64,000 nucleotides of DNA from an uncultured Lachnospiraceae bacterium (GCA_902767135.1 CACXGE010000066.1:5313-69312), one strand, 5' to 3'; counted from the stretch's first letter, positions 13,417 through 36,507 are shown. Translations and numbers: made by a program. The notes: generated from the sequence alone by a model not told the origin.

Positions 13417-13446
13417 ATAAAAAAGCCCCCCATTCCTGGGAGGCTT
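13417..13446 (-). terminator. Rho-independent terminator at the end of the pil-giant gene string
   Basis: The minus strand reads AAGCCTCCC-aggaat-GGGGGGCTT (9 bp, one G.U) followed by TTTTTTATT, 26 nt after the stop of the 1434-aa ORF. Confidence 0.85.
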
Positions 13447-13471
13447 TTGATTCCGAAGTATTTCTTTATAG

Positions 13472-17812: not shown

Positions 17813-20800
17813 TTAATCCAAATCAAACAACTGTGCTCTGCTGATATCTAAAGCATCATGCACTGATGCTGTTTTCTGTTTTGAAGTACCCTCTCCGATT
17901 TCCGTGTGCATCTTTACGTAGAGTCTGGTATACTGCTGGGTCTTAAAGGCTTCGGAAACTGGAAGCATTACATAGTAAGTCTGACCGTTTTCTAAGGCAT
18001 TGTATTCCACTTCTGCGTCTGTCTTTGCATTGTAAATCTTTAGCTGGGCACTGCTTGTGTATCTCTTACCCTTTTCTTCTGTACCGCTAATATTTGTGGT
18101 ATCTGTACCTGCATCATAGGTCTGGAACAATTCTTCAATGACAATTTTCTTATTCTTTGCAGTCAGGTTACCGTCATATACGTTAAAGTATGCTCTTACG
18201 GTTCCGCTATTGCCGTCTGCAGTGTATGCAATATTGTCTGCCATTGGGGCAATCTGGCTTGCCACTTCCGTGGTTAAAGCCGCATCATAAGGAATGGTGA
18301 TATTGTCAATCTCCTCTGCATCGTACTCTCCGTTGTCCACAAAGCTGACTTCCGGAAGCTTAAGCTGGGCATTGTAAGCTGCAATCATGGTATTGATAAA
18401 GAGCTTGATTTCAGTGTCATCCGAAATAATATAATGCCCCGCTCCAGAATAGGTGATATTTCCCTTATTGTAAATGTAGTAGTTATTTCTCACGTCATTT
18501 GGACTGGCCTCATACAAGCCCTCTGCTCCTTCGTATCCCTTGACATCATTTAAGGTATACCACACAACCAAATCGCTTTCATCATCATTGTTGTCGTCAG
18601 CTTCCAAGTCTACGGTCCAGTACTGGGCATGGGTACATGCCACATCAAAGCTCTCTGGAAGTTTATACGGATAGTCTGTGATAGCACCGTCATTAATCTT
18701 TCCAATCTGAACCGTCATTTCAGGATTCGGTTCATCTCCATTATACCATTCATATTTCTTGGTGTTATCAATGCCCTTCATATAGGCAACTGCCTTAGCA
18801 TCTTTGTTTTTATTTCTCACACCGCCATAAGTATTACCCTGGGTATCACCACTTACCTCCTCCTGATTGGTATTTGGCTTAAATGCCACATCATGGGTGG
18901 AAAGACCTGCGATACTGTCCACAATTTCTGCCCATCGGCTACCTGCACTTGACTTGGTATAATCCTTACCAGTCGCCACTAACTTTTCATTACCATCTGA
19001 TACTTTAAAGTACTGGTCAATGTAAGTTAATGCATAAGTGTCACTTGCAAAATTTGACACGGGGTTCGCAAACAGCTTGGTGGTCAGTCCATACTGGTCC
19101 ATACCACAAAGTCCTCGGATACCAATGGTCATAAACTGGGAACTCTTAGCTGTAGTCTTATCATAATCTTTTGTATATTTTTCATCTACATAGGAACTCT
19201 TCTTCTTGTAATCTCCACTCCAAGAAGTGGTATCATGGGTGAAGAGGATACTCTTTCCGCTTTCCCCAAAGGTGTTCAACGCCTCTACAAAAGCTGCCTC
19301 TCCCTTGAATCCGGTGTCATCAGCCCCCGTAACATTCTTACCATTTAATGAGAAGGCATCAATAAATCCTACCACCACCATGTCGATTGGCTGGTTATCT
19401 ATGGTGTAATTTAGGAAGTAGTCTTTAATATCTGTATCCGATAGATTACTCTTGGTAAGTGTTTTGGCAATTTCATTACCAGATACTGTCTTAATCCTCA
19501 AGTCAAAGTCTGGAATTTCTTTCAGCAAATTATGCCAATTAGAATCATTGCTTCCATACAGTCCTTCTCCCTTAAGTGCCTTTTCCATATTGATATAAGT
19601 ACCCTCCATGGAAGTACGTTTCGTCTGTTCATTTGTAGTAGAGCCGGAGGTAATCTGTAGAATACGAATCACCTGTTTATCATTGGTTTTATCCTCTGTT
19701 CCGCTGGCAGTCTTTGGGTTTACCTTAATGGCACAGTAACCCTTCTTTTCTGCCAAGATACTTGAGAACTGATTGGAACGAACCTGGAGTTTCCAGTTGA
19801 TACATCCGTCAAAACTCTTTGGAAGCTTGTAGCTTAAGGTGTATACGTTACCTTCTGTGAGACTATACTCTCCATTTTCATTACAGCTTTCCACCTTTCC
19901 GGTTCCACGGTTTTTAATTACCATGGAAGTTTTACTTAAGTACTCAGAGTTTTCCGAAAATTTACCGTCAAAGTTCTGGTCTATGTAGAGATTACAGTCA
20001 AAGGTCTTATCACTGAGCACTGCACCTTCCAAGGTGGAGATAGAAAACTCATATCTTAGATAATACCTTCCCTCTGCATCCTCCTGCAGATACTGTACAT
20101 CTGCAATTGGACTACCTACCTTTCCTGTATCTTCTGTATAGGAATATTCTGTTGGAAGTTCTGTCAGGTTTAAATCAATTCTTGTAGTATTTAAGTAGTT
20201 TGCCAGTTTCTGCTGTGCCTCCACAGTATCATCAATCAGCAGATTGGGATACTGACGATTCTCCCAGTTAAAGATATCTGCACTAGTTTTACCTGAAATT
20301 TTCATATCATAGTTATAATAGCCTTTTTTCTTTACCTCTTCCGGCTGATAGATACCCTTTTCTGAAGATGCCAGCTTCAATACCTGATACAGATATGTGG
20401 AGCTATCTACTGTCACCGACTTATCAAAATCAATATCAGTACCAGTACTTGCCTTTGTATAATACGGTGAATATTTATAATGATCCCCAATATATATATT
20501 CGCATCCTCATCTGCTTTGGCACTTGAAATATCTACATTTCCCTTATCTGTTCCTTCCTTGGCATAAATCTTAACATACTTTGCATCGATTGGAATCGTA
20601 TAAGAGCTCACATGGTGATTTTTTGAATTTCTACTCCATTTTCCAGTTTCCAGTTTTCCATCAAAGGTCTTTCCATCAACAGAGACTGCATAATATTTTG
20701 GCAGGGCTGTCCAGGAACCATCTACCTCCAAGGTCAGCTTTCTTGTATCTCTTCTTGATGATATTCCCTGACCCTTTGCTTTAATGCTTTGAGGAGCCCC

Positions 20801-23800
20801 ATCTAATATATTAAATAAATTGTTGGCAACCAATACCGGATAACCTGATTCCAGGTAATTAATTAAATCACGCTTTTTATAAGAGGTCAAATCATTACCG
20901 CTGGTTCTCATCTGTGTGGTTCCGTACTGCTTTTTCGATAATTCCGCAGTTCGATCACCACCAGCATAATCCCTTGCCAAAAGCCCGTAAGAGCTGTAGG
21001 CATCACCTTGTATATAGGTTGTATCTCCAATATGGCTGTACACCAATCCTTTCATAGTAGTATCATTAAACAAACGATTGCCATTTACCAGGTCTGTAAT
21101 GCCGGTGGCATCTCCCGACTTATCTGTGTAGAAACATCCCACTCTACTACCGATACAGATTAAGTCATAGGTATCATTTAGATTCTCATTCTTTCCAATA
21201 AACTCCTGCATACTCTGGCTGGTAAAGGTAACATCAGAATATCTGTTGTTGTCTGCAAAATACTTCATGTACTTATCAATAAATTCCTTCTGTCGTGTGG
21301 TCAGGTATCCATTGGGTGTACTGATTTTCTCTCCATTTTTGTCTGTTACAAAATTGAGACTGGCATCCAGTGCACTGCAGGTCACAGTTAAAGCATAATG
21401 TGAGCCCACATCCACTGTAAAATCGCTGACCCCGGATACTGCTCCACTTCCCTTGTCGGATCCACTGCTGTATATTGTGATTTTATCCACATTGATTGGC
21501 ACCTGACAGACAGCTGTATGTGAACTATAGCCTGTAATTTCAATCTTTTCACTTTCCTTATCTGAGCCTGTCTGGGTATAGCTGTAATATTTTGGTAAGT
21601 CTTTCCAGTTACTTGGCACCTTGATTGTCATCTGCTTTTCCGTTCCCAGACCCTTTAGTGCAAAGTCCGGCCCCGGCTCGAGTTCCAAAACGGAAATCTT
21701 ATTCTTCTTGATTTCTACCGATGCACCGGTATAATTCAAAAGATACTGGATAATAATGTCCGAACCGATTTCTGTATCTTCAATTTTGGGACGATTGCTT
21801 TCCATAGCCGCATTTCGCTGGTTTTCCAGCTCAATTTCTTCTAAGACCTGAACAAACCCTGTCTTTAGCACATCCTTTGTCATAGCTGTGGTAAAATCAC
21901 CATTTGCCAGATTGTAGGTTGCAGGTTCACCATCCATTTCATCCTGAGAACGCTTTGCCATCACACTTTTCTTGTAATACTCTGCATGATAGGAGAAGAA
22001 ATATATCGCATCGTTGACATACTGTCCCTTTGTGGCTGCAAATTTTCCCTCTCCAGTGCTTACCGTGTCTTTTACATCTTCTGAGGTGATGGTAAAACTA
22101 TCCCACATTGCTTCGTCCACTGCAAAGGTACTGGTAGTCTCACTGGTAGATGTAAATTCACCCACCTGTTCTGCTGCTGTTTTATAGTCATCCTGTGCCA
22201 GGATGTAGAGCATCTTTAATGCCGGGTCGGAGGCTACCTTCTTAAGATATCCTTCTGCCATTGCAACAGAAGCTGAGTCAGAACTATCTGGGTCTATCAA
22301 GTCACTGATAGTACCCATAAAGCTGTTCAAGGCTTCTAAAATACTGGAATCAATCATAAGCTTTGCAGGATTTTGGCTATCCAAAGCCTGGTTCATAAGA
22401 TTGATGACATGACTGTTCATAATAGCAATCTCAGCATCTCCTGTACTTCTGTAAGCATTTAGAATCCATGGTGAAATTGCTGTAAGCGCATTTCCTTCCG
22501 GCTCTGCTTTTACATAGTCATAGAAAAGGAGACTGTCTCCATCGCGATACAGTACCGGATTGGAAATATAAACCAAATCATAGTCCGTCATGGTCAGTGA
22601 TGCTACATCCCTGATGGAAATACTGTCCACTGTGACAATATCACTTAATAACGCATTTTCTATTTCCTCGTTTGTCAGACCTAATACAGCCTTCTGGAAC
22701 AAAGAATTACTCTTGATTTCCGCATGGGCTTCAAATCGGTACATCCATCCCTGACCTTCATATCCATTGTCCCTTTGAGGATTTTCCATATCCTCACAGT
22801 CTTCTGGACAATCCGGATAAAATTCAAAATATTCGTAAACATTGGTATTATCTACCGTTTCTCCTTCTTCTATGTAGGTCAACTGGATATATCTTCCTTC
22901 CACCTCCACATATGGCTTATCGCTAGGTGCCACCATGGGAGTAGGGGTTGGGGTTGCCTCCTTGGTTGGTGTGAGAGTAGGTTCCGTTGTAGGTTCCTGG
23001 GTTGGCTCCAGGGTTGGAGTTGGAGTTGGTTCTGCTTCTCCACCTTCTGTTGTGCCTTCCTCTGATTGGCCCTGCTGAGGTTCTCCATCTTCCCGTACAT
23101 CAGCCTCGGCCACATCTTCTGTAGTCTCCCCTTCTTCCTCTGTCGGCTGACTAACCTGTGCCTCTGTGGTGGGCTCTTTGGTTTCTTCAGCCTCTGGAGC
23201 TGTCTCATTCTGGGCAGCCTCATTTACCTTTGCTTCCTGAGTGTCTACATCAGTTTCCTCCGTGGCAGCAGTTCCCACCCACACAGAAGTCTTTTCTGTT
23301 TTCTTTAAGGATGCCTGCTGTGGGGTACTGGAGCTGACCTCCACAGGGGTAGGAGTTGCCACCAGGACACCCTTATAGTGGGCTGTACCACTGGTCACCT
23401 TCTGGAAGGTACCATGGGTGAGCACTCCATCTTCCCCATCCTCTGTCTTCTTTAAGGCATATCCCTTTTTGCTTTCCGGGATTTTATTCACATTGTTGAT
23501 AAAATCTGTTCCACTCTCTGTTGCCTTATAGTAAGTCAGTGGATAATTGGTGGCATCAGAGGAATCCATGCTCAAAAGTCCCAATGCATGAAGTCTTTTT
23601 GCCAACTTTTCGATTTCGCTGTTGCTCATATCCGACAGCATCCCCTCAAAGGGGTCCTGTCCAATGAGCATCTTCATAATACTTACCGACTGGTCTTCCG
23701 GTAAGATTTCAAGAATCTTAAACTTCTGGATATCTGTGGTCTTAATCTCACCGTTTTCCGTCTTATACTTACTTTCCACATTTTTAAACATACCCTTCGC

Positions 23801-23989
23801 CTGAACATTCTGGTAAGAGGAATGTATTAGATTCACAGCAACCACTCCTACTAAAAGGGTGGCTACTGCAACCTTTATGGGAGTACGCAGTTTTTTCTTC
23901 TGATTTGTATTAACTTTCTGATGATTCTTTAAAATCTGCCCATCATCCCGTCCGGACCTGGATGCAAATTTCGAAAATATCTTTTTCAT
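17813..23989 (-). CDS. Giant (2058-aa) secreted or N-terminally anchored protein of unknown function encoded at the 3' end of the pilus operon
   Basis: Long uninterrupted ORF. ATG 23989 has GGAGAG 8 nt upstream; the track start at 23992 is TTG. It has one N-terminal hydrophobic span (VAVATLLVGVVAVNLI), an E/T/P-rich acidic linker and internally repeated modules. I recognise no prepilin motif, LPXTG or catalytic motif. Confidence 0.9.
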   Translation of the reverse strand: MKKIFSKFASRSGRDDGQILKNHQKVNTNQKKKLRTPIKVAVATLLVGVVAVNLIHSSYQNVQAKGMFKNVESKYKTENGEIKTTDIQKFKILEILPEDQSVSIMKMLIGQDPFEGMLSDMSNSEIEKLAKRLHALGLLSMDSSDATNYPLTYYKATESGTDFINNVNKIPESKKGYALKKTEDGEDGVLTHGTFQKVTSGTAHYKGVLVATPTPVEVSSSTPQQASLKKTEKTSVWVGTAATEETDVDTQEAKVNEAAQNETAPEAEETKEPTTEAQVSQPTEEEGETTEDVAEADVREDGEPQQGQSEEGTTEGGEAEPTPTPTLEPTQEPTTEPTLTPTKEATPTPTPMVAPSDKPYVEVEGRYIQLTYIEEGETVDNTNVYEYFEFYPDCPEDCEDMENPQRDNGYEGQGWMYRFEAHAEIKSNSLFQKAVLGLTNEEIENALLSDIVTVDSISIRDVASLTMTDYDLVYISNPVLYRDGDSLLFYDYVKAEPEGNALTAISPWILNAYRSTGDAEIAIMNSHVINLMNQALDSQNPAKLMIDSSILEALNSFMGTISDLIDPDSSDSASVAMAEGYLKKVASDPALKMLYILAQDDYKTAAEQVGEFTSTSETTSTFAVDEAMWDSFTITSEDVKDTVSTGEGKFAATKGQYVNDAIYFFSYHAEYYKKSVMAKRSQDEMDGEPATYNLANGDFTTAMTKDVLKTGFVQVLEEIELENQRNAAMESNRPKIEDTEIGSDIIIQYLLNYTGASVEIKKNKISVLELEPGPDFALKGLGTEKQMTIKVPSNWKDLPKYYSYTQTGSDKESEKIEITGYSSHTAVCQVPINVDKITIYSSGSDKGSGAVSGVSDFTVDVGSHYALTVTCSALDASLNFVTDKNGEKISTPNGYLTTRQKEFIDKYMKYFADNNRYSDVTFTSQSMQEFIGKNENLNDTYDLICIGSRVGCFYTDKSGDATGITDLVNGNRLFNDTTMKGLVYSHIGDTTYIQGDAYSSYGLLARDYAGGDRTAELSKKQYGTTQMRTSGNDLTSYKKRDLINYLESGYPVLVANNLFNILDGAPQSIKAKGQGISSRRDTRKLTLEVDGSWTALPKYYAVSVDGKTFDGKLETGKWSRNSKNHHVSSYTIPIDAKYVKIYAKEGTDKGNVDISSAKADEDANIYIGDHYKYSPYYTKASTGTDIDFDKSVTVDSSTYLYQVLKLASSEKGIYQPEEVKKKGYYNYDMKISGKTSADIFNWENRQYPNLLIDDTVEAQQKLANYLNTTRIDLNLTELPTEYSYTEDTGKVGSPIADVQYLQEDAEGRYYLRYEFSISTLEGAVLSDKTFDCNLYIDQNFDGKFSENSEYLSKTSMVIKNRGTGKVESCNENGEYSLTEGNVYTLSYKLPKSFDGCINWKLQVRSNQFSSILAEKKGYCAIKVNPKTASGTEDKTNDKQVIRILQITSGSTTNEQTKRTSMEGTYINMEKALKGEGLYGSNDSNWHNLLKEIPDFDLRIKTVSGNEIAKTLTKSNLSDTDIKDYFLNYTIDNQPIDMVVVGFIDAFSLNGKNVTGADDTGFKGEAAFVEALNTFGESGKSILFTHDTTSWSGDYKKKSSYVDEKYTKDYDKTTAKSSQFMTIGIRGLCGMDQYGLTTKLFANPVSNFASDTYALTYIDQYFKVSDGNEKLVATGKDYTKSSAGSRWAEIVDSIAGLSTHDVAFKPNTNQEEVSGDTQGNTYGGVRNKNKDAKAVAYMKGIDNTKKYEWYNGDEPNPEMTVQIGKINDGAITDYPYKLPESFDVACTHAQYWTVDLEADDNNDDESDLVVWYTLNDVKGYEGAEGLYEASPNDVRNNYYIYNKGNITYSGAGHYIISDDTEIKLFINTMIAAYNAQLKLPEVSFVDNGEYDAEEIDNITIPYDAALTTEVASQIAPMADNIAYTADGNSGTVRAYFNVYDGNLTAKNKKIVIEELFQTYDAGTDTTNISGTEEKGKRYTSSAQLKIYNAKTDAEVEYNALENGQTYYVMLPVSEAFKTQQYTRLYVKMHTEIGEGTSKQKTASVHDALDISRAQLFDLD

Positions 23990-24096: not shown

Positions 24097-25929
24097 CTAT
24101 TTTTCTACTACAGTCAGGTCTTTTCGTCCATAAAGCTCTGTTCCTTTTAACTGAAGGAATACCCCAAACTGCTTGGTCTTTACACTGTTACCAATACTGA
24201 CATGAACACCATCCTCTGCGATATAAGCATTGGAGTTCTGCATACTAGGATTGGTATACACATCAAGGTCACTTGCGTCTGCCTTCAGACCTGTTACCTT
24301 ATATTCCAGTACAACACCAGCATTTTTCTTGATGGTGCCGGCACCATTTAATGTAACGCCTACCACTGGAATCTTTACTGTTACCGGAAGGGGCTGACTG
24401 ATACTTACCGAACCGGAATTACTGGTGAGTTCTGCAATCACCTTCACAATATATTCTTTTTCGTAGTTAATGTCCTTTGCAATTTTCATCATTCCATTAT
24501 TTGCCACGGAAATTTTTCCCGAATCAACTAAAAGCTTGGTATCACTGTTTGTCATATCCAGTTTCCACAAAACTGTCAAATCTGAGTTGGTTAAATTGTT
24601 CCCCAACACATCCTCCTGCAAATCTACGGTCTCATTTCTATTGGCTTCCAAGTCGCTTACAAAGCTGACTCCTGCCTCTACTACCGTGAATTTATAATCT
24701 GCAGTGACCGATGGATTAAATTTACTGGTCACATGAATGGTATATTCATTTCCCACAGTTCCCGCTTCCAGATTGATAATACCGGATTCCGACAACACCT
24801 TACATCCACTTGCATCGTTCTTTGAACTTCCCAGTACCTGGTAATCCACCTGGGTCACTGCTCTTTGCAGGTCCTTGGTCAGTAGGCTCACATCGGAAAT
24901 ATTGGTGACTGCTTCCGCCTTCACCTGGAACAGACTGTTGGCTTTCTGCTTATCTCCATCTGGTGTTGCGTATAAGCTGATAGCTGTTACCTTCAATATC
25001 GTTGCTTTCAATTTCTGTGATACCTTAGTATCATCAGACACTGAAGTTGCCTGAACCGCCACCTCATCTAAATTGCAATTTAGTGGCACATTGATTGTTC
25101 CACTATTGTCAATCCAGTCTAACTCATTTCCTGCTGCATCAAACAACTTCCATGACACGGTCTGGGATGGGATTCCACTACCCTTTACTTTTGCTCTGGC
25201 ACGATAGCTTTTTCCTGGAAGAAGGTACTGGCTGTTTAAGCTTACTTCCACATCTGTCACAGCAGAATAATCTTCTCCCGGACTGAAAATCGCACCACTG
25301 TCTGTGGTAGCAATATAAATATTATTTCTCATTGCCACAGTTTTGTTGGAGGTAAAACTGCCTCCTTTCTCTGTGATTTCAATTGCAATTTCTATCTGCT
25401 GTTTTTTGTTGGCACTGGAAGTGGCAACCACGATAGGAGTCACGCTGGGATCCGGAGTGGCACTTACATAACCAACAGGAGCTGCCTTGCTCTCTCCCTT
25501 TTGGAGCAACTTAAAGTCTGTTACATTCTCAGCCACCACTTCACTTTTATCCATACCACTGAAATTGGCAATTTCCACTCCCGCAGAGGACAGATAATAA
25601 ATCTTCTGATCCCCCATATCATATACAAAATATTCATATAGAGGATTTCCACTGGAGTCAAGATTGTAAATCGTCAACACCTTACGGTCTGCATCTTCCC
25701 TGCAGGTTACCCCCTTCTGGGCATCTAAGATGCGATTCTCAATGGCAGAAACGGCAAGCTGGGCTCTCTCCTGCTTTCTTATTTCGTCATGGGAACTCCC
25801 AAACAGCCTGGTACCTGTCACCATAAAGGAGGTAACCGTGACGATGACAATACTGATAATGGCTACTGCGATTATCATTTCCACCAAAGATAAACCTTTA
25901 TTATTTTTGATATGTTTTATATTCTTCAT
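24097..25929 (-). CDS. Modular minor pilin: prepilin-type N-terminus fused to about 570 aa containing Ig-like (Big_2-like) repeats
   Basis: MKNIKHIKNNKG/LSLVEMIIAVAIISIVIV is a class III signal with Glu at +5 and a hydrophobic alpha1N. The C-terminal part carries repeats such as VSWKLFDAAGNELDWIDNSGTINV and VLWKLDM...GKISVANNGMMKI. The SD is GGGGGAAG. Confidence 0.85.
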   Translation of the reverse strand: MKNIKHIKNNKGLSLVEMIIAVAIISIVIVTVTSFMVTGTRLFGSSHDEIRKQERAQLAVSAIENRILDAQKGVTCREDADRKVLTIYNLDSSGNPLYEYFVYDMGDQKIYYLSSAGVEIANFSGMDKSEVVAENVTDFKLLQKGESKAAPVGYVSATPDPSVTPIVVATSSANKKQQIEIAIEITEKGGSFTSNKTVAMRNNIYIATTDSGAIFSPGEDYSAVTDVEVSLNSQYLLPGKSYRARAKVKGSGIPSQTVSWKLFDAAGNELDWIDNSGTINVPLNCNLDEVAVQATSVSDDTKVSQKLKATILKVTAISLYATPDGDKQKANSLFQVKAEAVTNISDVSLLTKDLQRAVTQVDYQVLGSSKNDASGCKVLSESGIINLEAGTVGNEYTIHVTSKFNPSVTADYKFTVVEAGVSFVSDLEANRNETVDLQEDVLGNNLTNSDLTVLWKLDMTNSDTKLLVDSGKISVANNGMMKIAKDINYEKEYIVKVIAELTSNSGSVSISQPLPVTVKIPVVGVTLNGAGTIKKNAGVVLEYKVTGLKADASDLDVYTNPSMQNSNAYIAEDGVHVSIGNSVKTKQFGVFLQLKGTELYGRKDLTVVEK

Positions 25930-25947: not shown

Positions 25948-26502
25948 TTATTTTTTTGCACCGTTGATATAAATATCTGTTTTTCCGGTGACTTTACTTA
26001 TGGTAATGTACATACCGCTACCTACAGGATTGGAGGCATTGGATACATATATTTTCTTCAGGTATGCTCCACTACCACTCTCCGGCAGTAAGCCTCCAGT
26101 GGCTCTGTCAAAACACACATACCCCGGATTACTGCTGTCTACTGTCTGTGTTGTGCCATCAGAATATTCTAATGCCACATAAATTTTGCTGTTTCCAATC
26201 TTTTCTGCATCCATTCCGGCAATTTCAGCATCAGAATTGGTCATGTCTACATAGTGCAGTACACATCCTGTGGAATCCTTGGTAATTTTCAAGGCAATAT
26301 CTCTTGATTGGATAGACTTTGTCGTAGTATAGCTCTGCGTTTTCATCAAAGCACTGTTTAGTTTCTTTAAGCTGCTCTTTACATTGGTGCTGTATAGATA
26401 ACCCACACCAACGACCACGGTACTTGTCACAATAGATAGAATTGCTATGACGATAATCAGCTCTATCAGAGAGAAGCCTTTGTTGTTATGTTTTATTTTC
26501 AT
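25948..26502 (-). CDS. Minor pilin (prepilin-type N-terminal cleavage/methylation domain protein)
   Basis: MKIKHNNKG/FSLIELIIVIAILSIV is the canonical G/FxxxE motif. 184 aa, SD GGGGGAAG. Confidence 0.88.
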   Translation of the reverse strand: MKIKHNNKGFSLIELIIVIAILSIVTSTVVVGVGYLYSTNVKSSLKKLNSALMKTQSYTTTKSIQSRDIALKITKDSTGCVLHYVDMTNSDAEIAGMDAEKIGNSKIYVALEYSDGTTQTVDSSNPGYVCFDRATGGLLPESGSGAYLKKIYVSNASNPVGSGMYITISKVTGKTDIYINGAKK

Positions 26503-26514: not shown

Positions 26515-29040
26515 TTATTCTTTCGACCAGTTTTCATAGCTTACCAAATCGGCAATGTCTAATTTATTGGTTCCATTCTTATTGTTATCTGATTTGCTTG
26601 TAATGTCCATTCCACTGTAGAATAAATCTTTTACAGCAATATTTCTCAGTTCTGTCTTACTTCCTATCAAAACTGGCAATTCTTTTGTAATATTCAATAC
26701 ACGTCTTACATCTTCTGCATTGTACTGGATATCCCCACTACTCTTTAAGTAAATAGTTCCACCACACACAATAGTTCCTTGAAACGCCCTATTCACCTGC
26801 ACATCTCCTGTGGCAATCAACAGGGAAGTTTCTGGATCTATTTTTGTTCCATCTACATTACAAACACCTTGCCCTTTATTGTTTACAACCAATGCTTTTA
26901 CTTTTTGTTCCGTATTTTCAAAAGTTACCGTAGAACCCAATGGACATATGTTATTTAATAAATCCACATTAATCAAGTTCTCAAAAATTGCATTTTCTTT
27001 CAACACCTTTGTCTTGGTGATTCCGTCTGCATCTGTGTAGGAAATACTCTCTCCCACCACAGAGTTTGCCAGTAGATTCAGACAATATCCGGTATACGCC
27101 TTGGTATAGAAGTCAATTTCCTTATCTATATTTGCACTTTCACCAGTTGCCTGATCTGTAGCCAGGGTACTTTCTACGATTTCATAGCTTACTTCCTTGG
27201 TATCCTCATCCTCTACCCTACGGATTACGTTACCTGCTACATTGAAGTTGTCAATTCCAATTGCTCCATTTTCATCCACAGGCACCTCTAACTGTGACAG
27301 ATAAATATTCAGATAATCTTTGATATGTTTGCTGTCTTCCTTGAAATAATCCCGAAAGAACTTGGACGCATCCTGCTGGGTCTCAAAGGTCATGTAGTAG
27401 TACACATAGGTATCTGAGGTTCCTCCCCCTACCGGCACATAACGGTTGATAAAGGAGGCATTGTACTTCTGGGCCAAATTATTTGTTTTCGCGGCAGTGT
27501 CTGCACCTGGTGTAGTGCTCGGTGCTGCTGTGACACCCTTGCTGCTGTCAGAATCTTTTCCCCAATACACCTGCACAGCCACCTTTTTTCCATTGTTGGT
27601 CTTACCTGCAGCACAATATTTATCAAAATTTTCCACCCGATCACTCTGCAGCCACTCGTAGTCCCAGCCCGGTGATGCATAGCCATCCAGCTTTGACTGA
27701 AGCACCGGATTGGTTCCCAATACCTGTTTGAAGCTGCCATCATCTTCCTGAATGTATCCAATTAAGTCAGCGGGAACCAGGTAGGCAATCTGTGCAACCT
27801 TGGCACTGACGGATTCTCCCATCATAATATCCCGGTTCTGAATTGTACCCACCGATGCATAAGGAGTAATATTTGCACTGTCTTTTCCACTGCGCACAAA
27901 GGTTCCAATATAGGCATTTCCCGGCAACAATAATCTATCTAATCCAGTCATGGACACCTTTGCCCTGGTACCATTGATGACAATGGCACTGCTCTCTGAT
28001 GCCTTTCCAAGGGATTCCCCTGCTTCATTTTTTGCCACATTGGTCTTTCCAAAACCAATATACTGATGCTGTAGGTTCAAAGTACTCTCATCCCCCAACA
28101 AGGTAGAGTCGTCCTTTACATAACTAGTTCCCAGCAATTCTACCTTCGCACCGTTATCTACCACCACGTTGGTAGTCCAAAGACTACTCCTACTGTCCAC
28201 TGAAAGTCCAGCCCTATTTCCGTCTGCAGACACAGTTCCATTTGTGATAATCAGTTCTGAGTCATGAAACGACACATTGGAACCATAGGAAGTAAAAATT
28301 CCGTCTTTTCCACCAAAAACACATCCAGAAATTTTTGTATTTTCACCATCTTTACTCTGTATGCTGTCGTTGGCAATCAAACTATAATTTACCAACTGTG
28401 GGATGGTAACTGCAGTATCAAAAGAAATGGCAGGCACTGCCACTCTGATATCCGTCTGAATCTTGGTAACATATCCTTTCTTATCCTTATAACAGACAAA
28501 TATATTCTTCAATACTACTCCATCCTTGCTGGCAGATATGGTAGCATCCTTTCCACTGGCTACCTCTACCGTAGCCCCCGGACTGGTCTTGATATCCGAA
28601 GTCAACACTTCTGCCGGAACCATACCACGAATTTTATCAATATCGTATTCTCTATCGTTATTTGCCTTCTGTACCCCACCTGTAAATTCCTTTACATAGG
28701 TATAGAGAAATCCATCGCTACGTTCTTCCTGGGTTTTGTACTTTTGATTGTTGTAGTTTTGCATAACCTCCATATATGCTACATCCGTAGCATCGGATGC
28801 ATTTTTCTGCAAGCCTGCTTTGATTTCTTCCAACACACCTTCCGCTGAGTAGAAGTTATTCTTAGAATTGGCATCGTTTGCTTTCATGTGAAAGTTGGCA
28901 AGACACATATAGAGTGACATTACCACCAAAATCCCCATCATTGCCATAATCACAACCACTAGAACAATGGCAGCACCCTGGTTGTTGGAGAACACATTAT
29001 TTTTTTTGATTTGCTTTATTTTATTTTTTATGCTCATCAT
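26515..29040 (-). CDS. Oversized (841 aa) PilX/GspK-like pseudopilin lacking Glu5
   Basis: The N-terminus ...NNQG/AAIVLVVVIMAMMGILVVMSLYM is a pilin-like hydrophobic helix with no acidic residue at +5. It sits among the minor pilin genes. The central part is rich in short beta-strand repeats (for example NGTVSADGNRAGLSVDSRSSLWTTNVVVDNGAKVELLG). Confidence 0.75.
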   Translation of the reverse strand: MMSIKNKIKQIKKNNVFSNNQGAAIVLVVVIMAMMGILVVMSLYMCLANFHMKANDANSKNNFYSAEGVLEEIKAGLQKNASDATDVAYMEVMQNYNNQKYKTQEERSDGFLYTYVKEFTGGVQKANNDREYDIDKIRGMVPAEVLTSDIKTSPGATVEVASGKDATISASKDGVVLKNIFVCYKDKKGYVTKIQTDIRVAVPAISFDTAVTIPQLVNYSLIANDSIQSKDGENTKISGCVFGGKDGIFTSYGSNVSFHDSELIITNGTVSADGNRAGLSVDSRSSLWTTNVVVDNGAKVELLGTSYVKDDSTLLGDESTLNLQHQYIGFGKTNVAKNEAGESLGKASESSAIVINGTRAKVSMTGLDRLLLPGNAYIGTFVRSGKDSANITPYASVGTIQNRDIMMGESVSAKVAQIAYLVPADLIGYIQEDDGSFKQVLGTNPVLQSKLDGYASPGWDYEWLQSDRVENFDKYCAAGKTNNGKKVAVQVYWGKDSDSSKGVTAAPSTTPGADTAAKTNNLAQKYNASFINRYVPVGGGTSDTYVYYYMTFETQQDASKFFRDYFKEDSKHIKDYLNIYLSQLEVPVDENGAIGIDNFNVAGNVIRRVEDEDTKEVSYEIVESTLATDQATGESANIDKEIDFYTKAYTGYCLNLLANSVVGESISYTDADGITKTKVLKENAIFENLINVDLLNNICPLGSTVTFENTEQKVKALVVNNKGQGVCNVDGTKIDPETSLLIATGDVQVNRAFQGTIVCGGTIYLKSSGDIQYNAEDVRRVLNITKELPVLIGSKTELRNIAVKDLFYSGMDITSKSDNNKNGTNKLDIADLVSYENWSKE

Positions 29041-29054: not shown

Positions 29055-30446
29055 TTACTTTGTTACACCATGTTCACTATCTAAGGTTGTCAACGGACTT
29101 ACCCCGCTAAAGTTGGCATCATAAGCCCCACTGGCATACACTTCAACCTTTGTAGTATAAATATGTATATCATCATTCTTGGCATCTGTCACATCTGATA
29201 CCTGGTCATAAAACTGATTTCCTGTCGCTGTCTGTTTTCCCCCTGCATAAGTACGCTCAAAAATGCCCTGTGTGGTAACCTTTGCAGGATTTTGCTTGTT
29301 GTCCACCATATCCTTTAAGTCATATCCAATGTTGGTACGGATACAGGTAGGATTATGGTCTGCATCTGCCTGGTCATTTAAGGAAACCTTCACTTTATAT
29401 GCTTTTTCTTCCTGGGAAAGCAGTACACTTTCTATACTGTTTTGCTTTACAAGAAATACATTTACCGGTATGTTTTCGGGATTGTTAATCACAATGCTAT
29501 CCTTGATATCCATGGCATTTTTAGATTCATAATGTGGATTGTACAAAATATAGACATTGCGAAGTGGCTTCATATCTGCCGGGTCTGTGGCTTTGTTGTT
29601 GAATAATTCATAATCCACGTCCTCGTAATATCTGTTTCCGATATTTGCCGAAGTGTAGACCGTACCATCAATCACATATTTTTGTGGAATTTCCACTTTG
29701 TATTTTACTTTCACGATGGTTACCCTGTCTGTGGTATTGCTTGGAGAAAAATCCTCTGTCCCGATATCTACAATAATCGAACGACTAGCTCTGCTTTCCA
29801 CGTCGGAGGTGCTCAGATTGTACCCCGAGATGACAGTTCTGTTGGCAAGCTCTGCACACAGGTTCCCTATAGTTTCTCCGCTTTCGGTATACAAACCATC
29901 CTGTTCCTTGTCATAAGAAGCCAAATCCACATAGCCTACAGAGTTTTTATATTTTACCTCGCCATCTGGAATAGACGCAACATCACCATAATACTTACTG
30001 GCATCTAAAGTCACCTTTACGTCATAGGTCTTTCCATCATAATCTAATCCCTTGATTCCATAGTAATACACATTGCTGGCATGCTTGGTAATCTCTGTGC
30101 TGCCTGCATTTATTGCGGTATTGACTTCCGAAGCATTTTCATTAATGAAAAATTCCTTGTGGGCACTATTCGCCACATCATACATTCCCTTTGGAAGTAC
30201 CGTTAAATCATTGGTATTTGAGTTATCTAATTCCCTTGCCACTGAGTCAAAGCTTTCATTGGAGAGTGCCTCCATGACAGACTGGGCAACTGCTGTCTGA
30301 TTCATAATCTTGTCTGACCGATTGTTCACCTTCATAGAAGTTATAATTCCCCTTAAAATCGGTGCTACAATAATCGCCACAATGGCCACTGCAACCAAGA
30401 TTTCTACAAGGGTAAAACCGTCATTGTTATTATATCTTTTTTTCAT
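29055..30446 (-). CDS. Large minor pilin (463 aa) with prepilin-type N-terminus
   Basis: MKKRYNNNDG/FTLVEILVAVAIVAIIVAPIL gives G/FTLVE with Glu5. The SD is GGGAGG. Confidence 0.88.
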   Translation of the reverse strand: MKKRYNNNDGFTLVEILVAVAIVAIIVAPILRGIITSMKVNNRSDKIMNQTAVAQSVMEALSNESFDSVARELDNSNTNDLTVLPKGMYDVANSAHKEFFINENASEVNTAINAGSTEITKHASNVYYYGIKGLDYDGKTYDVKVTLDASKYYGDVASIPDGEVKYKNSVGYVDLASYDKEQDGLYTESGETIGNLCAELANRTVISGYNLSTSDVESRASRSIIVDIGTEDFSPSNTTDRVTIVKVKYKVEIPQKYVIDGTVYTSANIGNRYYEDVDYELFNNKATDPADMKPLRNVYILYNPHYESKNAMDIKDSIVINNPENIPVNVFLVKQNSIESVLLSQEEKAYKVKVSLNDQADADHNPTCIRTNIGYDLKDMVDNKQNPAKVTTQGIFERTYAGGKQTATGNQFYDQVSDVTDAKNDDIHIYTTKVEVYASGAYDANFSGVSPLTTLDSEHGVTK

Positions 30447-30668: not shown

Positions 30669-31427
30669 CTAGCGGACAGAACGAAATGGGTTGCTTGTTC
30701 CAACGGAAACACCATTGACATCCGGTGTTTCATACACTTCGTCTGTTCCCTGCATATAGTAGAAATTAGAAGTCATAGTACCTGAAAGCAATCCTGTTTC
30801 CTCATTGTAAGTCAGTGACACTTCCTCAATACTCTTCTTGTCTGCATCTCCTGCCATTGCAGTAATCAACTGTTTAAATGATACATAGTTTACATCAAAA
30901 GCGGTAGAAACAGGCACATAATAAAGCTTTACATCTGTATATGCACTTGCATCTGACAATACTGCACCATCTGTGGAAGCTGTATCATCGGCTGCAGCTG
31001 CTGTATCTGTTGTAGCAGTTGTTGTTCCAGCCAGCATTTCGTCTACATTGATGGTTTCCGGAACCGGATAAGCTGCCTCGTAGTTTACCGCGCTTGGCAT
31101 TCCAAGGGCACTGGCATAGTACTCACCAAGGCTTCCCTCTAAACCGTTAATATAGAGGATATCATCTTCTTCTTTCATACCTGCCGGAAATTCTTCCTTG
31201 ATTTCCTGGTTTTCTCCCTTAAACTGTTCTGTATCTGCAAGATACTGTTCTCTGTTCTTGTCTAAGTCCTTTAACTTTACAATCACATCATCTAAAATCT
31301 GATTTTCCTGTTTTAACGCCTCTGTCTTCTCCTGAAGATTTAGGAAGACAAAGAAGTACACTGCAAGTACAACCAACACACCTGCAACAACCAATAAAAT
31401 ATTACGATCTCTCTTTGAAAAATTCAT
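30669..31427 (-). CDS. pilO: Type IV pilus assembly protein PilO
   Basis: 252 aa, bitopic: short cytoplasmic N-terminus, TM LLVVAGVLVVLAVYFFVFL, then a coiled-coil (LQEKTEALKQENQILDDVIVKLKDL). It sits directly after pilMN. Confidence 0.8.
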   Translation of the reverse strand: MNFSKRDRNILLVVAGVLVVLAVYFFVFLNLQEKTEALKQENQILDDVIVKLKDLDKNREQYLADTEQFKGENQEIKEEFPAGMKEEDDILYINGLEGSLGEYYASALGMPSAVNYEAAYPVPETINVDEMLAGTTTATTDTAAAADDTASTDGAVLSDASAYTDVKLYYVPVSTAFDVNYVSFKQLITAMAGDADKKSIEEVSLTYNEETGLLSGTMTSNFYYMQGTDEVYETPDVNGVSVGTSNPFRSVR

Positions 31428-31445
31428 ATTTGTCTCCTCCCCTTA

Positions 31446-33332
31446 CTACTGTGCACTTACGGTTGGTGTTACCGATGCTTCTGCACTTTCTGTAACTGCC
31501 GCTGTCACGGTAGCTTCTGGTGTCAAAGTAGCTTCTGCTCCCGGTGTTACGGTGGCATCGGCTGCGACAGTAGCTTCCGGTGTCAATGTGGCATCTAAGG
31601 TACCCTCTGTGGTAGGAGCCACAGTAGGCTCTACAATTTCTGCCACCTCTGTGTCTTTGGTATCTTCCAAACCGATGGCATCTAATTCCATCTGCTCTTT
31701 ATTCTTGTACACACCATCCACGGTAAGATTTACTTCTCTCACTCCGGTTTCAGACTTGGTATCTGCAATAGATTCCACTCTGATATCTTCTACACTGTTA
31801 AAGGTTCTAAACTGGGTAATTACTTTTGCAGCTTCCTTCTTGTTGTTCACACTGAGTCCAATATTAAAGCTCTCTCTATTAGAAGTAAGACTGGTAATCT
31901 TAACAGAAGAAGGCATCTTCTTTTCCATTTCCTGAATAAAATCAACTAATTCGTTGTTGTGTGTCCAGGTATAGTCTTCAATGGTTGTCAGATAATCGTT
32001 TTCTGCTTTCGTCTCTACGTACTCATTGTAGATTGGCTCAATGGAACGCAAGCTTTCTACCAACGTTTTATCATGAGAATTGGTCTGTTTTTCAATGGTA
32101 TATGGAATGACAGACCAGGCAATCAATACCACTGAAATTCCCATACATACTGCAAACCCTATCACCGGAATGATGTTTTTATCCACTCCTGCCACGGTGG
32201 AAGAAGACTTTTTCTTCTTCACTTCATATAGATTGATTGGTGCCATTGCCGCACCGATATTTTCGATGTATTCACCAAAGGTTGCGTCTTTGAAGAATCT
32301 ATCGATATGTAATCCTGTAATCTTTGAAAGCACTATAACCTTGCTTCCAATGGAATTTGTCATCAATTTCGAAAGTCCTGCAAACTCTCCACCTGCACCG
32401 GTCAAATAAATCTTTGTAATCGGTGTCTTTGGATATCTGGAATTGTAGAAGTCCAACATATGAATAGTCTGACTGATCAGTGGCCCAAAGGACTCTGTCA
32501 CTGCTGTCTTGGCATCTAACAATTCTTTACTGATGTCAACGGTATCTTCTGTCTCGATATCTTCTTCCATATCCGAGAACTGATCCTGTAAACTAAGTCT
32601 GATACAAGTCTTTCTATGTGCTAAGGTCTGTGCCTGCTCATAGCTTAGTTTTGGTCCAAAAGCTTTATTGTTCTGAATTTCAATAATCGCATCATCTACA
32701 CCATATGGTATGGTACGAGATAACAATACAGAGTCATTTTCAATGACCATCATCAGGGAAGACTTCTCTCCCACCTTCATAATTAAGTTGGCACCAGAAA
32801 CACATTCTGCCTTGGCTACCTGGTATACTGAATTACCTGCATAGTCCACAGCTACAATTTCCAAGTCACACAATTCTGCCAACTGGGTATATCCGTCAAA
32901 CAGTGATTTTGGTGCAGCCAACACCTGAATCTTGTATCTTTTGCCCTGCTCGTCTTCCTCTGTACCAAGGATATTGTGAGAAATCTGATAATTTGCCAAA
33001 TCGATTGGGAAATAATCTGCCGCATTTGCCATAACCATTGGTCCAATTCGATTTGCCTTTACATATGGAAGCTTTACTTCCCTTGTGGCAATTTTGGTAG
33101 ACTGAACCGTAAACACCACATATTTGGTACGCATATTCTTGTCGATAATCATGTTGCGTAAGCTGGTTGCAAAGGACTTAATATCTCCCTGCAGAACACC
33201 GTCTGAAATTACCCCTTCCGGTGTTTTCATTGAAAAGCTCTGATAAATTCTTGGGTTTTTGGAGCGGTAATCCATAAGACACACTCTTGTCATAGTATCA
33301 CCGACTTTAATACTTAATACTTTCGAAATCAT
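31446..33332 (-). CDS. pilM: Fused PilM (actin-like ATPase fold)-PilN pilus assembly protein with a T/A/E/P-rich C-terminal tail
   Basis: 628 aa. The N-terminal ~370 aa look PilM-like (VLSIKVGDT..., AVDYAGNS..., LTGAGGEFAGL). A TM follows (IIPVIGFAVCMGISVVLIAWSV), then a PilN-like periplasmic-type domain and a low-complexity tail. Confidence 0.85.
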   Translation of the reverse strand: MISKVLSIKVGDTMTRVCLMDYRSKNPRIYQSFSMKTPEGVISDGVLQGDIKSFATSLRNMIIDKNMRTKYVVFTVQSTKIATREVKLPYVKANRIGPMVMANAADYFPIDLANYQISHNILGTEEDEQGKRYKIQVLAAPKSLFDGYTQLAELCDLEIVAVDYAGNSVYQVAKAECVSGANLIMKVGEKSSLMMVIENDSVLLSRTIPYGVDDAIIEIQNNKAFGPKLSYEQAQTLAHRKTCIRLSLQDQFSDMEEDIETEDTVDISKELLDAKTAVTESFGPLISQTIHMLDFYNSRYPKTPITKIYLTGAGGEFAGLSKLMTNSIGSKVIVLSKITGLHIDRFFKDATFGEYIENIGAAMAPINLYEVKKKKSSSTVAGVDKNIIPVIGFAVCMGISVVLIAWSVIPYTIEKQTNSHDKTLVESLRSIEPIYNEYVETKAENDYLTTIEDYTWTHNNELVDFIQEMEKKMPSSVKITSLTSNRESFNIGLSVNNKKEAAKVITQFRTFNSVEDIRVESIADTKSETGVREVNLTVDGVYKNKEQMELDAIGLEDTKDTEVAEIVEPTVAPTTEGTLDATLTPEATVAADATVTPGAEATLTPEATVTAAVTESAEASVTPTVSAQ

Positions 33333-33476: not shown

Positions 33477-34235
33477 CTAGCCTAACGCAGTAGTTAAATA
33501 CCACTGAATCATTTCATTTCCAAACAAGGCACTGACCATAATCCCAATGGATAGATAAGGTCCCAATGCCAGCACATTCTCTGCCCCACTGACTCTCATT
33601 CGAATCAAGTGACACACGGAGCCTACAATGCAGCCAATTCCAAAGGAAAGCAAGATAAGCTTCCAGCCTAACAATAATCCTGCTGCTGCCATCAGCTTCA
33701 TATCTCCTCCTCCAAAGCCTCTGCCCTGGGTAATGAGAATCACAATAGCAATAAATCCACTGACTGCAAAAAATCCTATCACATAGGACAGCCAGTTTTC
33801 ATAGTCTGCTGCCACCTGCACCAGACCCAATATAAAAATAAATACATTGATTCCAAAAGGAATCTCATAGGTACGCCAGTCAATGACGCTTAATACCAGT
33901 AAGGCAGAGCCTAAAAAACAATACAAAAAACTCTTTACCTGAAATCCACAAACAAAAAACACAAGTATATACAATATCCCGTTGGCTAATTCCACCAAAG
34001 GATACTGTATAGAAATGTGTGTTTTACACTTCCGGCACTTTCCACCCAGGCAAAGGTAGCTGAAAAGTGGTATTAAATCATACCATTTCAGCTGATACCC
34101 ACATTGCATGCAATGAGAGCGTTCCTTTGCTATACTCTGCTTCACTGGAATCCGATAAATACATACATTCAAAAAGCTTCCAAAGATAATACCATATAGA
34201 AATATAATACCGTAAAGTATAATCTGGCTGGTCAT
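33477..34235 (-). CDS. pilD: Prepilin peptidase (A24 family aspartic protease / N-methyltransferase)
   Basis: 252 aa, polytopic. Has the N-terminal CxxC...CxxC (CMQCGY...CRKCK) and catalytic Asp motifs VIDWRTYEIP and GGGDMKLMAAAG. Confidence 0.93.
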   Translation of the reverse strand: MTSQIILYGIIFLYGIIFGSFLNVCIYRIPVKQSIAKERSHCMQCGYQLKWYDLIPLFSYLCLGGKCRKCKTHISIQYPLVELANGILYILVFFVCGFQVKSFLYCFLGSALLVLSVIDWRTYEIPFGINVFIFILGLVQVAADYENWLSYVIGFFAVSGFIAIVILITQGRGFGGGDMKLMAAAGLLLGWKLILLSFGIGCIVGSVCHLIRMRVSGAENVLALGPYLSIGIMVSALFGNEMIQWYLTTALG

Positions 34236-34255
34236 AGGGGTGTTCCTTTCGTGTT

Positions 34256-34699
34256 TTAATTTGGCGTAACGTTGCCGTTACTATTTGTGTATGTAATATT
34301 ACAAGCCGGCCACTGGGTATTGGAAAATTTCACTTCGATTTTGGAATAGCTTTTACTTACCAATCGTGTTTTGTCATAATTTGTGCCCAGTACCGATTTT
34401 AAATAAGTGTCCAAATGGCTAGGGTTAGCCCCCGCCCCCGTGGCACTTATGATAACATCTCTGTTGGGAGTCAAAGTTATGATGTATTCGCCCCCCTCCA
34501 TGTTTTCTTCTTCATCACTGAGAAGCATGGCACAACTTTTGCGAATTTCGTCTGCCTGTCTTTCATCTTTAGCCACCCTGGACTTTTCCACATATTTTAC
34601 ATACTGTGGTGCAAGGATTGCTATCAATACTGCCATGATTGCCACAACAATAATCAGCTCAACCAAAGAAAAGCCTGCATCCCGTCCTTCTTTCTCCAT
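34256..34699 (-). CDS. pilA: Type IV pilin (second of a tandem pair)
   Basis: MEKEGRDAG/FSLVELIIVVAIMAVLIAILAPQYVKYVEKSRV. The track start at 34705 is GTG, and ATG 34699 follows GGAAGG. 147 aa. Confidence 0.88.
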   Translation of the reverse strand: MEKEGRDAGFSLVELIIVVAIMAVLIAILAPQYVKYVEKSRVAKDERQADEIRKSCAMLLSDEEENMEGGEYIITLTPNRDVIISATGAGANPSHLDTYLKSVLGTNYDKTRLVSKSYSKIEVKFSNTQWPACNITYTNSNGNVTPN

Positions 34700-34723
34700 A
34701 CCCACTAACCTTCCATTCTATCA

Positions 34724-35164
34724 CTATTTCGTATAATTATTTGTAGGATCAGATACTGTTACAGTCGGAACCTTAATATTAGCATTATTTGGATCTGCTT
34801 TAAACTCAACTTTGATAGTTACAGTCTTAGAATTATATGTCTTAGACTTTAAATTAGCATTTGCGATACTAGTCAATGCTGAAATTTCTGTTGATGCCTG
34901 AGTATCACTAACTGATGCCCCAGCTGTTCCACCTGTAATACTGATTGTAAAATCATTAGTAATCTGTGAATCTGGATCTGATACAGCTGTTTCTGCTGAC
35001 TTCTTCAGTTCATCAAGAGTATCTACGTCTGCTGACACTCTTGACTTTTCTACATACTTCATGTACTGTGGTGCTAAAATACCAATTAAGATAGCCATAA
35101 TAGCTACTACGATGATAAGTTCTACTAATGAGAAACCTTTGTTGTTTGAAAATCTCTTCTTCAT
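34724..35164 (-). CDS. pilA: Type IV pilin, likely the major subunit
   Basis: MKKRFSNNKG/FSLVELIIVVAIMAILIGILAPQYMKYVEKSRV. 146 aa. It is the first pilin after pilC, preceded by a 117-nt AT-rich spacer and a strong SD (GGAGAGAG). Confidence 0.9.
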   Translation of the reverse strand: MKKRFSNNKGFSLVELIIVVAIMAILIGILAPQYMKYVEKSRVSADVDTLDELKKSAETAVSDPDSQITNDFTISITGGTAGASVSDTQASTEISALTSIANANLKSKTYNSKTVTIKVEFKADPNNANIKVPTVTVSDPTNNYTK

Positions 35165-36493: not shown

Positions 36494-36507
36494 GATTCTC
36501 CTCCCAC

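Follow-up and report, generated by a model that had tools for sequence, protein, structure and literature searches.

The protein described here is encoded on the minus strand, at 17813-23989, of a 64,000-nucleotide stretch of DNA from an uncultured Lachnospiraceae bacterium (GCA_902767135.1 CACXGE010000066.1:5313-69312; the whole stretch is called the window). It is 2058 amino acids (aa) long, belongs to the Pfam family DUF5057, and its gene (the target) follows the minor-pilin genes of a complete type IV pilus (T4P) operon. Judged by its sequence and its gene neighbours, the product is a giant non-pilin protein that is extracytoplasmic and unanchored, and its gene has a functional tie to the minor pilins of the T4P. 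We propose, at a probability of roughly 45%, that it is a pilus-associated non-pilin glycan adhesin, which would be analogous and not homologous to PilY1/PilC. The evidence for the association with the pilus is comparative and strong, and the mechanism is inferred.

Linkage of the giant gene to the pilus operon

Homologues of the target at 100%, 30%, and 27% identity all stood directly after the same series of PilM, PilO-like, and minor-pilin genes. Their downstream neighbours were different (a Big_2 protein, flagellar basal-body genes, or comM-like/dprA/topA). As the upstream series was constant and the downstream genes varied, conservation of the pilus operon ends with the giant gene. Searches with tblastn detected T4P proteins in 75/80 species-level loci, and the other five loci had less than 2.5 kb of upstream sequence. 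At the level of open reading frames (ORFs), 68 loci with more than 5 kb upstream were counted; at least one prepilin ORF was present upstream on the same strand in 67/68 and at least two in 65/68, and the adjacent ORF itself was a prepilin in 52/68. For the reciprocal test, metagenome loci with at least 5 kb downstream were picked solely by homology to the 841-aa minor pilin of the operon, and in all of them (49/49) a DUF5057 core followed downstream in the same orientation. PilB was located downstream of the giant gene in a subset of the loci; there the order of the operon is permuted and the linkage persists.

An earlier note on this DNA, made from the sequence alone, had suggested a phyletic and synteny survey; once run, the survey showed near-universal linkage to pil genes in both directions. 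The inference in that note of a pilus-associated adhesin or exported substrate is strongly backed by this reciprocal synteny and by the carbohydrate-binding cassettes of relatives. The target has no homology to any known pilus protein, as would be the case for an unrelated large surface protein that lies beside the pil genes by chance. Such a coincidence is extremely improbable and is effectively refuted by reciprocal, near-universal synteny in 462 species-level genomes and the metagenomes.

Homologues were collected by an exhaustive HMMER search with residues 880-2058 as query, counted in clusters at 50% identity. The query was limited to the conserved C-terminal two-thirds because the low-complexity linker swamped word-indexed searches (21-23 matches). 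The search gave 1,384 clusters at E ≤ 1e-3 and 531 at E ≤ 1e-30, nearly all of 1,400-2,300 aa, and a scan of one genome per species found relatives in 462 genomes. The best 80 of the 462 were nearly all Lachnospiraceae, and the cultured carriers included Lachnotalea glycerini, Anaerobium acetethylicum, Kineothrix alysoides, Roseburia amylophila, and Coprococcus catus. Three loci that are clearly of Lachnospiraceae type (L076, L031, and L040) were labelled Thermoguttaceae, uncultured Bacteroides, and Muribaculaceae. The ORF of L076 has 1582 aa, that of the Roseburia amylophila locus L077 has 1581 aa, and both have the same C-terminus. The three loci are likely mislabelled records or mis-binned contigs.

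The obligate co-occurrence with assembly and minor-pilin genes would also fit a structural part of the monoderm pilus machine, for example one guiding the filament across the peptidoglycan; wall crossing by monoderm T4P is an acknowledged open question (PMC6916266). We consider such a role very unlikely. The family was essentially restricted to Lachnospiraceae in the sample, whereas reports of T4P cover all Clostridia or almost all of them (PMC6958937), and rapidly varying cassettes and lectin-type domains are unexpected in a core machine part.

The Coprococcus catus VPI-C6-61 locus (L082, 5117-11992) carried PilB, PilT, and a PilC with an aberrant C-terminus, followed by an ORF of 652 aa. This ORF starts inside the DxNxDG loop and represents the last third of a DUF5057 protein, and the locus had no pilins, PilD, PilM/O, or minor pilins. 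It was considered as a minimal family member of 626 aa beside PilC and rejected, as it looks like the remnant of a large deletion in a degenerate pilus locus. The same locus shows that pilT lies between pilB and pilC in related operons, unlike in the window.

The protein, its family, and its domains

The target gene is one intact ORF with its ATG at 23989 and its stop codon at 17813-17815. A Shine-Dalgarno ribosome-binding site (RBS), GGAGAG, precedes the ATG, and a TTG one codon upstream gives a mechanical ORF of 2059 aa. The plus-strand translation of 17813-23989 was full of stops. A protein identical to the target was present on contigs from several independent samples, and full-length orthologues showed 77-82% identity; the target is therefore a real, conserved gene. 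The product has a size of ~225 kDa. The 2058-aa ORF listed in the earlier note thus exists, on the minus strand, which the note did not state, and every motif it quoted was present in the translation. NVQA/KG was found at residue 61, FKILEILPEDQ at 90, DYDLVYISN at 469, ISVLELEPGPDF at 765, and TYDLICIGS at 940. In the C-terminal half, VIRILQITSGS was found at 1440, PIDMVVVGF at 1534, and NITYSGAGH at 1844, and the C-terminus reads SRAQLFDLD. NITYSGAGH had been placed near the C-terminus; the motif is there, and it lies ~200 residues before the end.

Residues 1-64 (23798..23989, minus strand, as for all segments below) comprise a basic N-region, a single hydrophobic span (~residues 34-58), and a V-Q-A/K site. 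A43, L46, and A64 were conserved in at least 90% of the family, and most homologues showed an AxA-type site. From these features we infer a cleavable Sec-type signal peptide, cut after Ala64. The prepilin motif (N_methyl; PF07963/TIGR02532) gave no match in the target and matched six neighbouring genes, and the hydrophobic span of the target stands before the cleavage site, not after it as in prepilins. No LPXTG or other C-terminal sorting signal, no hydrophobic tail, and no wall-binding Pfam domain (SLH, CWB) was found in the target. The signal-peptide reading of the earlier note therefore gains support from the family-wide AxA conservation, and the prepilin motif and sorting signal that it had stated to be lacking were indeed absent by Pfam and by inspection of both termini. 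A distant subgroup (P0018, P0020, and P0021, from loci L005 and L006) begins with a hydrophobic segment, a very basic stretch, and a second hydrophobic segment near residue 102, with no obvious AxA site.

DUF5057 (PF16480), which the earlier note had named correctly, matched the target at 139.1 bits, far above the curated gathering threshold of 27.9 (E = 3.3e-40). The match is one domain split in two, with profile positions 1-29 at ~1032-1064, positions 33-378 at 1188-1586, and an insert of ~120 residues between them. The model has 378 positions and spans only ~1032-1586, that is, the end of module 2, the immunoglobulin (Ig)-like domain, and the first half of module 3 as defined below; it straddles structural domain borders and misses the segment 1756-1875. 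DUF5057 was also matched in 12/12 and 24/25 of the relatives tested, and public NCBI names of relatives read 'DUF5057 domain-containing protein'. The NCBIfam scan of the target gave no family. The target is a member of a Pfam family that carries no recorded function or pilus link, and literature searches for DUF5057, for ThuA-like proteins with pili, and for Lachnospiraceae pili returned nothing relevant in the literature that could be searched.

Domain boundaries were drawn as a synthesis of composition, AlphaFold models, and the conservation profile across diverse relatives. The model of residues 1190-2058 had a predicted template-modelling (TM) score (pTM) of 0.80 and a mean predicted local distance difference test score (pLDDT) of 75; that of residues 60-1200 had a pTM of 0.49 and a mean pLDDT of 67. 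After the signal peptide, residues 65-157 (23519..23797) form the N-part of α/β module 1 with the β1 strand FKILEIL. Residues 158-420 (22730..23518) are an acidic Thr/Pro/Glu-rich linker inside module 1, predicted to be disordered with pLDDT <50 (model residues 99-361). The remainder of module 1, residues 421-760 (21710..22729), combines α/β structure and a helical region and includes the strand DYDLVYISN. Module 2 as a whole covers residues 761-1064. A variable all-β cassette, A, is inserted after its β1 (residues 783-893, 21311..21643), followed by the conserved core with TYDLICIGS (residues 894-1064, 20798..21310), the end of which matches DUF5057 profile positions 1-29. A second variable β-sandwich cassette, B (residues 1065-1189, 20423..20797), splits the Pfam DUF5057 match, and a helical linker (residues 1190-1264) leads to a conserved Ig-like β-sandwich (residues 1265-1435, 19685..20197), whose strands have pLDDT 80-95. 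Within this domain, residues 1337-1349 (19943..19981), DQNFDGKFSENSE, form an EF-hand/dockerin-like DxNxDG loop, invariant as DxNxDGKFS. D1337 and G1342 were invariant in alignment A1, and D1337, D1341, G1342, and E1349 reached at least 90% in alignment A5. The loop is a possible Ca2+ site on this pattern of conserved residues.

The invariant family core is α/β module 3 (residues 1436-1875, 18365..19684), with the conserved motifs HDTT (1585-1588), THxQY (1786-1790), SPNDVRNNYYIYNKGNITYSGAGH (1829-1852), and E1860, and with a poorly conserved insert of 165 residues (1591-1755). Residues 1756-1875 showed 52% identity among diverse representatives and are the most conserved segment. The invariant or near-invariant polar residues of module 3 are H1585, D1586, R1625, D1631, N1766, T1786, H1787, Q1789, D1798, D1806, N1835, N1836, Y1837, H1852, and E1860. 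A C-terminal β-sandwich (residues 1876-2058, 17816..18364; pLDDT ~90) has weak similarity to the Ig-like domain and ends in the conserved motif LFDLD-COOH (residues 2054-2058, 17816..17830). The pattern [LMIV][FL][DENS]L[DE] was present in ~74/78 complete C-termini of the family.

The three module starts that the earlier note had seen were examined in the family consensus, which reads ILEIVP...DLxYLSG at module 1, VLELEP...YDMIYIGS at module 2, and VLQIxS...YDMLILGF at module 3. The β1-like motifs and the 'YD-hhhh-G' strands are thus not noise, because they are kept in the consensus. As repeats they could not be demonstrated. BLAST self-comparison of the target showed no internal similarity, hhalign gave 47-74% probability over only 30-40 columns for module 2 against module 3, and module 1 reached <5% against either of the others. 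Three homologous modules as an established fact were rejected on these results, and the protein has a single DUF5057 domain, not three copies.

The same note had likened the modules to ThuA-like or class I glutamine amidotransferase-like (GATase1-like) ones, and this likeness gained no confirmation. The ThuA Pfam family (PF06283) gave no match at E ≤ 10 in the target or in the relatives tested, a sequence-profile search of the PDB with the target gave 0 matches at E ≤ 1, and whole-model Foldseek searches of the PDB returned no ThuA or GATase1 structure among the 50 best matches listed for either multi-domain model. The ThuA-family structures 4JQS and 4E5V were retrieved with a ThuA-like consensus, used as bait only, and a search for further PDB ThuA sequences found none. 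Comparison of module 3 with these two by hhalign gave 14.7-19.8 against shuffled controls with a mean of 14.1 and a maximum of 17.1, with or without the insert, level with these controls or only just over them and not above reversed ones, in a test of low power, as 4JQS and 4E5V detect each other only at E = 0.018. The best match was always on the SGKSILFTH motif. By eye, motifs of 4JQS and the target were collinear (YNVIIML/IDMVVVGF, NGGGWVGFH/SGKSILFTH, and NKNYRMIYLNMGH/NKGNITYSGAGH), at no statistical support. In the model, module 3 begins with a β-α-β N-half, as in ThuA-like proteins, followed mostly by β strands and a final helix; the 165-residue insert that splits the module in the target is a difference.

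The strand and helix order of module 3 fits, by eye, a flavodoxin-like three-layer domain, and the fold class of the α/β modules in the models is probably flavodoxin-like. In a BFVD structure search, ranks 1, 6, 9, and 27 went to phage tail proteins of the SGNH/GDSL esterase type, with low TM. Membership in SGNH/GDSL was rejected on block order and spacing, which do not fit the target sequence; these matches are a hint of fold class only, because the block order does not fit. The best PDB matches of the C-terminal model in Foldseek were enzymes like glycoside hydrolase (GH) family 123 (E = 5e-6, TM 0.09-0.14, root-mean-square deviation ~20 Å), and the remaining ones were generic Ig-like or fimbrial β-sandwiches. 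In GH123-like β-N-acetylgalactosaminidases, a β-sandwich is combined with a (β/α)8 barrel, and a DUF4091 region and a catalytic DE motif are present (PMC11087588). The GH123 reading was dropped because no DE pair was invariant, no GH123 or DUF4091 Pfam match was found, and the barrel helices between the last four strands were missing. At the level of the model, the match is a generic resemblance of a β-sandwich followed by an α/β domain. No confident assignment to a well-known family unlinked to pil genes was therefore obtained; the homologues are pil-linked, and the glycoside hydrolase similarity has a TM of ~0.1.

Cassettes A and B are variable, with an occupancy of 0.11-0.43 and 2-6% identity to the target among diverse relatives (0.11-0.24 and 2-5% for cassette A). 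In the N-terminal model, the Foldseek matches listed fell only on the β-sandwich cassettes and comprised the carbohydrate-binding modules (CBMs) CBM41, CBM25, and CBM26, of starch-binding type, and C2-like sandwiches; the best TM was that of CBM41 (0.60 on the target). Cassette B of the target showed weak F5/8-type-C similarity. In relatives, CBM26 was found in slot B (P0007 and P0034), F5/8-type-C ahead of the DUF5057 start (P0014), and an F5/8-type-C/NedA-like domain inside the module-3 insert (P0024); others carried a β/γ-crystallin domain and a CBM-like domain, and three different slots were used in all. Exchange of lectin-type modules on an otherwise conserved scaffold is what adhesins and glycan-active enzymes typically show.

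The operon and the proposed role

The gene order on the minus strand of the window is aroE, PilB, PilC, two pilins, PilD, PilM(N), PilO-like protein, four minor pilins, target, and Big_2/fn3. The PilB ATPase, the PilC platform protein, two major-type pilins (146 and 149 aa), and the PilD prepilin peptidase are encoded at 33477..38232, with PilB and PilC adjacent (14-bp gap). A PilM(N) fusion of 628 aa and a PilO-like protein of 252 aa follow at 30669..33332. In the fusion (31446-33332), PilM_2 matched only residues 17-221, and a long C-terminal extension ends in an Ala/Thr/Glu/Pro-rich tail; it also gave a weak NCBIfam match to the Amuc_1101 PilM-like family. The minor pilins are a 463-aa protein with a GspI/PilV-like N-terminus (29055..30446), an 841-aa K-type protein (26515..29040), a 184-aa protein with a GspH-like N-terminus (25948..26502), and a 610-aa protein with a prepilin motif directly upstream of the target (24097..25929). 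The 841-aa pilin reads ...NNQG/AAIVLVVV..., has no Glu at +5, and matches PilX_N weakly, as expected for a candidate K-type (GspK/PilX-like) tip pilin. Of all minor pilins of the operon, it was the one that tblastn recovered in the largest number of loci, and it is the obligate syntenic partner of the target.

Between the 610-aa pilin and the target lies a gap of 107 bp, which contains no convincing terminator, and the target has its own RBS. Two hairpins in the gap (window 23990-24100) showed no significant folding (z = -1.27); the first, with an AT-rich stem of 9 bp and a U-rich stretch after it, might lower read-through into the target. No terminator was found between the target and the Big_2/fn3 gene, and the first strong intrinsic terminator of the operon (13421..13448; 12-bp stem and T-run) comes after the latter. 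The Big_2/fn3 gene (13472-17776) is a 1434-aa ORF (1413 aa in public contigs) with a signal peptide, three Big_2 stretches, and a C-terminal fn3 domain. Its likely start is the Met 21 codons in (~17713), because the longer ORF has no RBS. Downstream of the giant gene it is kept in the closest relatives (L007-L013) alone, and it therefore seems to be an extra, lineage-specific surface protein in the operon. The remainder of the window holds housekeeping genes, and at 42960-52783 (minus strand) a polysaccharide pyruvyl transferase, three family-2 glycosyltransferases, an FrhB/FdhB-like Fe-S protein, and two fused ABC exporter genes are encoded. This cluster is probably a locus for cell-surface polysaccharide modification, unrelated to the target.

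As a pilus-associated glycan adhesin, the target would be exported by the Sec pathway and cut after Ala64. Its conserved C-terminal half (Ig-like domain, module 3, β-sandwich, and LFDLD-COOH) would dock on the minor-pilin complex, with the 841-aa K-type minor pilin as the likeliest partner. Priming and capping of the filament are attributed to the minor-pilin complex, and the target would for this reason be carried out on the pilus. So conserved an extreme C-terminus (~74/78) is as expected of a docking element. The variable N-terminal half and the swappable β-sandwich cassettes would bind glycans, as homologues suggest, and the target would do in Lachnospiraceae the job that PilY1/PilC do for Gram-negative type IVa pili, with an unrelated protein.

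Several observations weigh against this proposal. A protein of this mass is very bulky for passage through a Gram-positive wall on a pilus tip, and the invariant polar residues of module 3 resemble an active or metal site no less than they resemble a docking surface. The N-termini of P0018, P0020, and P0021 suggest membrane anchoring instead of cleavage in some members. The target itself has no significant Pfam adhesion domain (best F5/8-C, E = 0.03), and no PilT retraction ATPase is encoded in the 64-kb window; any retractility of the pilus would depend on a gene elsewhere in the genome.

The bulk of the protein and the unclear cleavage site of this subgroup would be accounted for by an adhesin on the cell surface or released from it, which shares a transcript with the pilus genes and is not part of the filament, in the manner of the Caldicellulosiruptor tapirins. 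It would be free or fixed in the membrane by an uncleaved N-terminal signal-anchor, and the 260-residue Thr/Pro/Glu-rich stretch would serve as a wall-spanning stalk. One N-terminal hydrophobic span followed by a long disordered, acidic, TP-rich region is consistent with such a layout, as are the CBM cassettes of relatives. The linkage to the pilus genes (49/49 and 67/68, down to 25% identity and with changing downstream neighbours) is far tighter than co-regulation requires, the AxA site is conserved, and the conserved C-terminal half and end have no obvious role in a free adhesin. We hold a non-filament adhesin to be possible and rather doubtful.

The polar residues of module 3, about a dozen of them invariant across very diverse members, point in another direction, to an enzyme or effector that is exported through the pilus by a piston like that of type II secretion or delivered at its tip. 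Module 3 would then be catalytic (a flavodoxin-like hydrolase or ThuA-like), and the cassettes would target glycans. A CBM joined to a catalytic domain is the usual layout of glycan-active enzymes, structure matches to carbohydrate-active enzymes were weak and recurrent (the GH123-like and SGNH/GDSL matches above), and no PilT is encoded in the operon. Type II secretion systems (T2SS) and type IVb pili (T4bP) offer a precedent in the non-pilin effectors PulA and TcpF, which touch tip pilins (PMC10191384). We regard an enzyme or effector as unlikely, since no catalytic family was found by Pfam, NCBIfam, or the PDB sequence profile, the structural matches had TM ~0.1, the defining features of GH123 were absent, SGNH block order and spacing were unfit, and it is unusual for secreted substrates to be tied to minor-pilin operons in hundreds of species. 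In a more specific form, and at odds that are lower still, the Lachnospiraceae pilus operon would be at least partly a Gram-positive counterpart of the T2SS/T4bP effector system. The minor-pilin tip would recognise the C-terminal half and the LFDLD end and push the target through the wall, and the core would be a new glycan-active enzyme aimed by the CBM cassettes. If this were true, the target would be a dedicated pilus-driven secretion substrate in a monoderm, not a passive adhesin.

Comparison with known pilus partners

The proposed pilus-associated adhesin finds its closest functional parallel in PilY1/PilC. PilY1 has Ca2+-binding sites or loops, and the target carries the EF-hand-like DxNxDG loop. 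At the tip of the pilus, PilY1/PilC, a large and modular non-pilin, caps the HIJK minor pilins and adheres through variable modules (PMC10191384). The target is likewise large, modular, and non-pilin, with an ordinary predicted signal peptide and a gene in the minor-pilin cluster, and it shares the polarity of a conserved C-terminal and a variable N-terminal part (PMC10191384). It differs in showing no Pfam match to the PilC/PilY1 β-propeller (Neisseria_PilC; whole protein at E ≤ 0.01, piecewise at E ≤ 1) and no vWA domain. Its C-terminal model is α/β plus β-sandwich with no propeller, and no PilY1 structure was among the listed Foldseek matches. It is also about twice the size and comes from monoderms.

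Tapirins are proteins of roughly 600-900 aa with a β-helix fold, whereas the target has 2058 aa and a predicted α/β and β-sandwich structure; no tapirin structure was among the listed PDB matches, which is a weak test. Their genes lie directly downstream of the Caldicellulosiruptor T4P locus, with an undetermined relation to the pilus (10.1101/614800), and in this gene position the target resembles them. The minor pilins PilB and PilC of Streptococcus sanguinis present adhesive vWA or lectin-type modules on a Gram-positive pilus (PMC10191384), which is the likeness to the proposed role of the target. Those proteins are true pilins with a prepilin leader and a module grafted onto a pilin domain, whereas the target has neither the motif nor the pilin domain. 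The target thus belongs to DUF5057, and it does not belong to the PilY1/PilC family, the pilins, the sortase substrates, the tapirins, or the GH123 enzymes; by analogy, it may act as PilY1 does.

Non-pilin proteins that ride on the pilus tip or are handled by it (PilC/PilY1, PulA, and TcpF) are central to adherence, surface sensing, and secretion by type IV filaments. In Gram-positive pili, modular pilins are believed to fill this role. A review of the field covers such non-pilin partners only for Gram-negative systems (PMC10191384), and no description of a PilY1-like partner of monoderm T4P, or of a pilus link of DUF5057, was found in the literature that could be searched. The DUF5057 family is already catalogued and uncharacterised; by its linkage to the pilus it is a candidate non-homologous analogue of the pilus-associated non-pilin effectors. 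If the proposed role is true, the target family would be the first candidate for a non-pilin tip partner of monoderm pili, in several hundred Lachnospiraceae species, and DUF5057 (about 1,400 clusters at 50% identity) would gain a biological context. Among the carriers are genera of the gut and rumen that can be cultivated, such as Roseburia, Blautia, Agathobacter, Kineothrix, and Lachnotalea, and the starch-, galactose-, and other glycan-binding cassettes would give a handle on the attachment of abundant gut commensals to dietary or host glycans.

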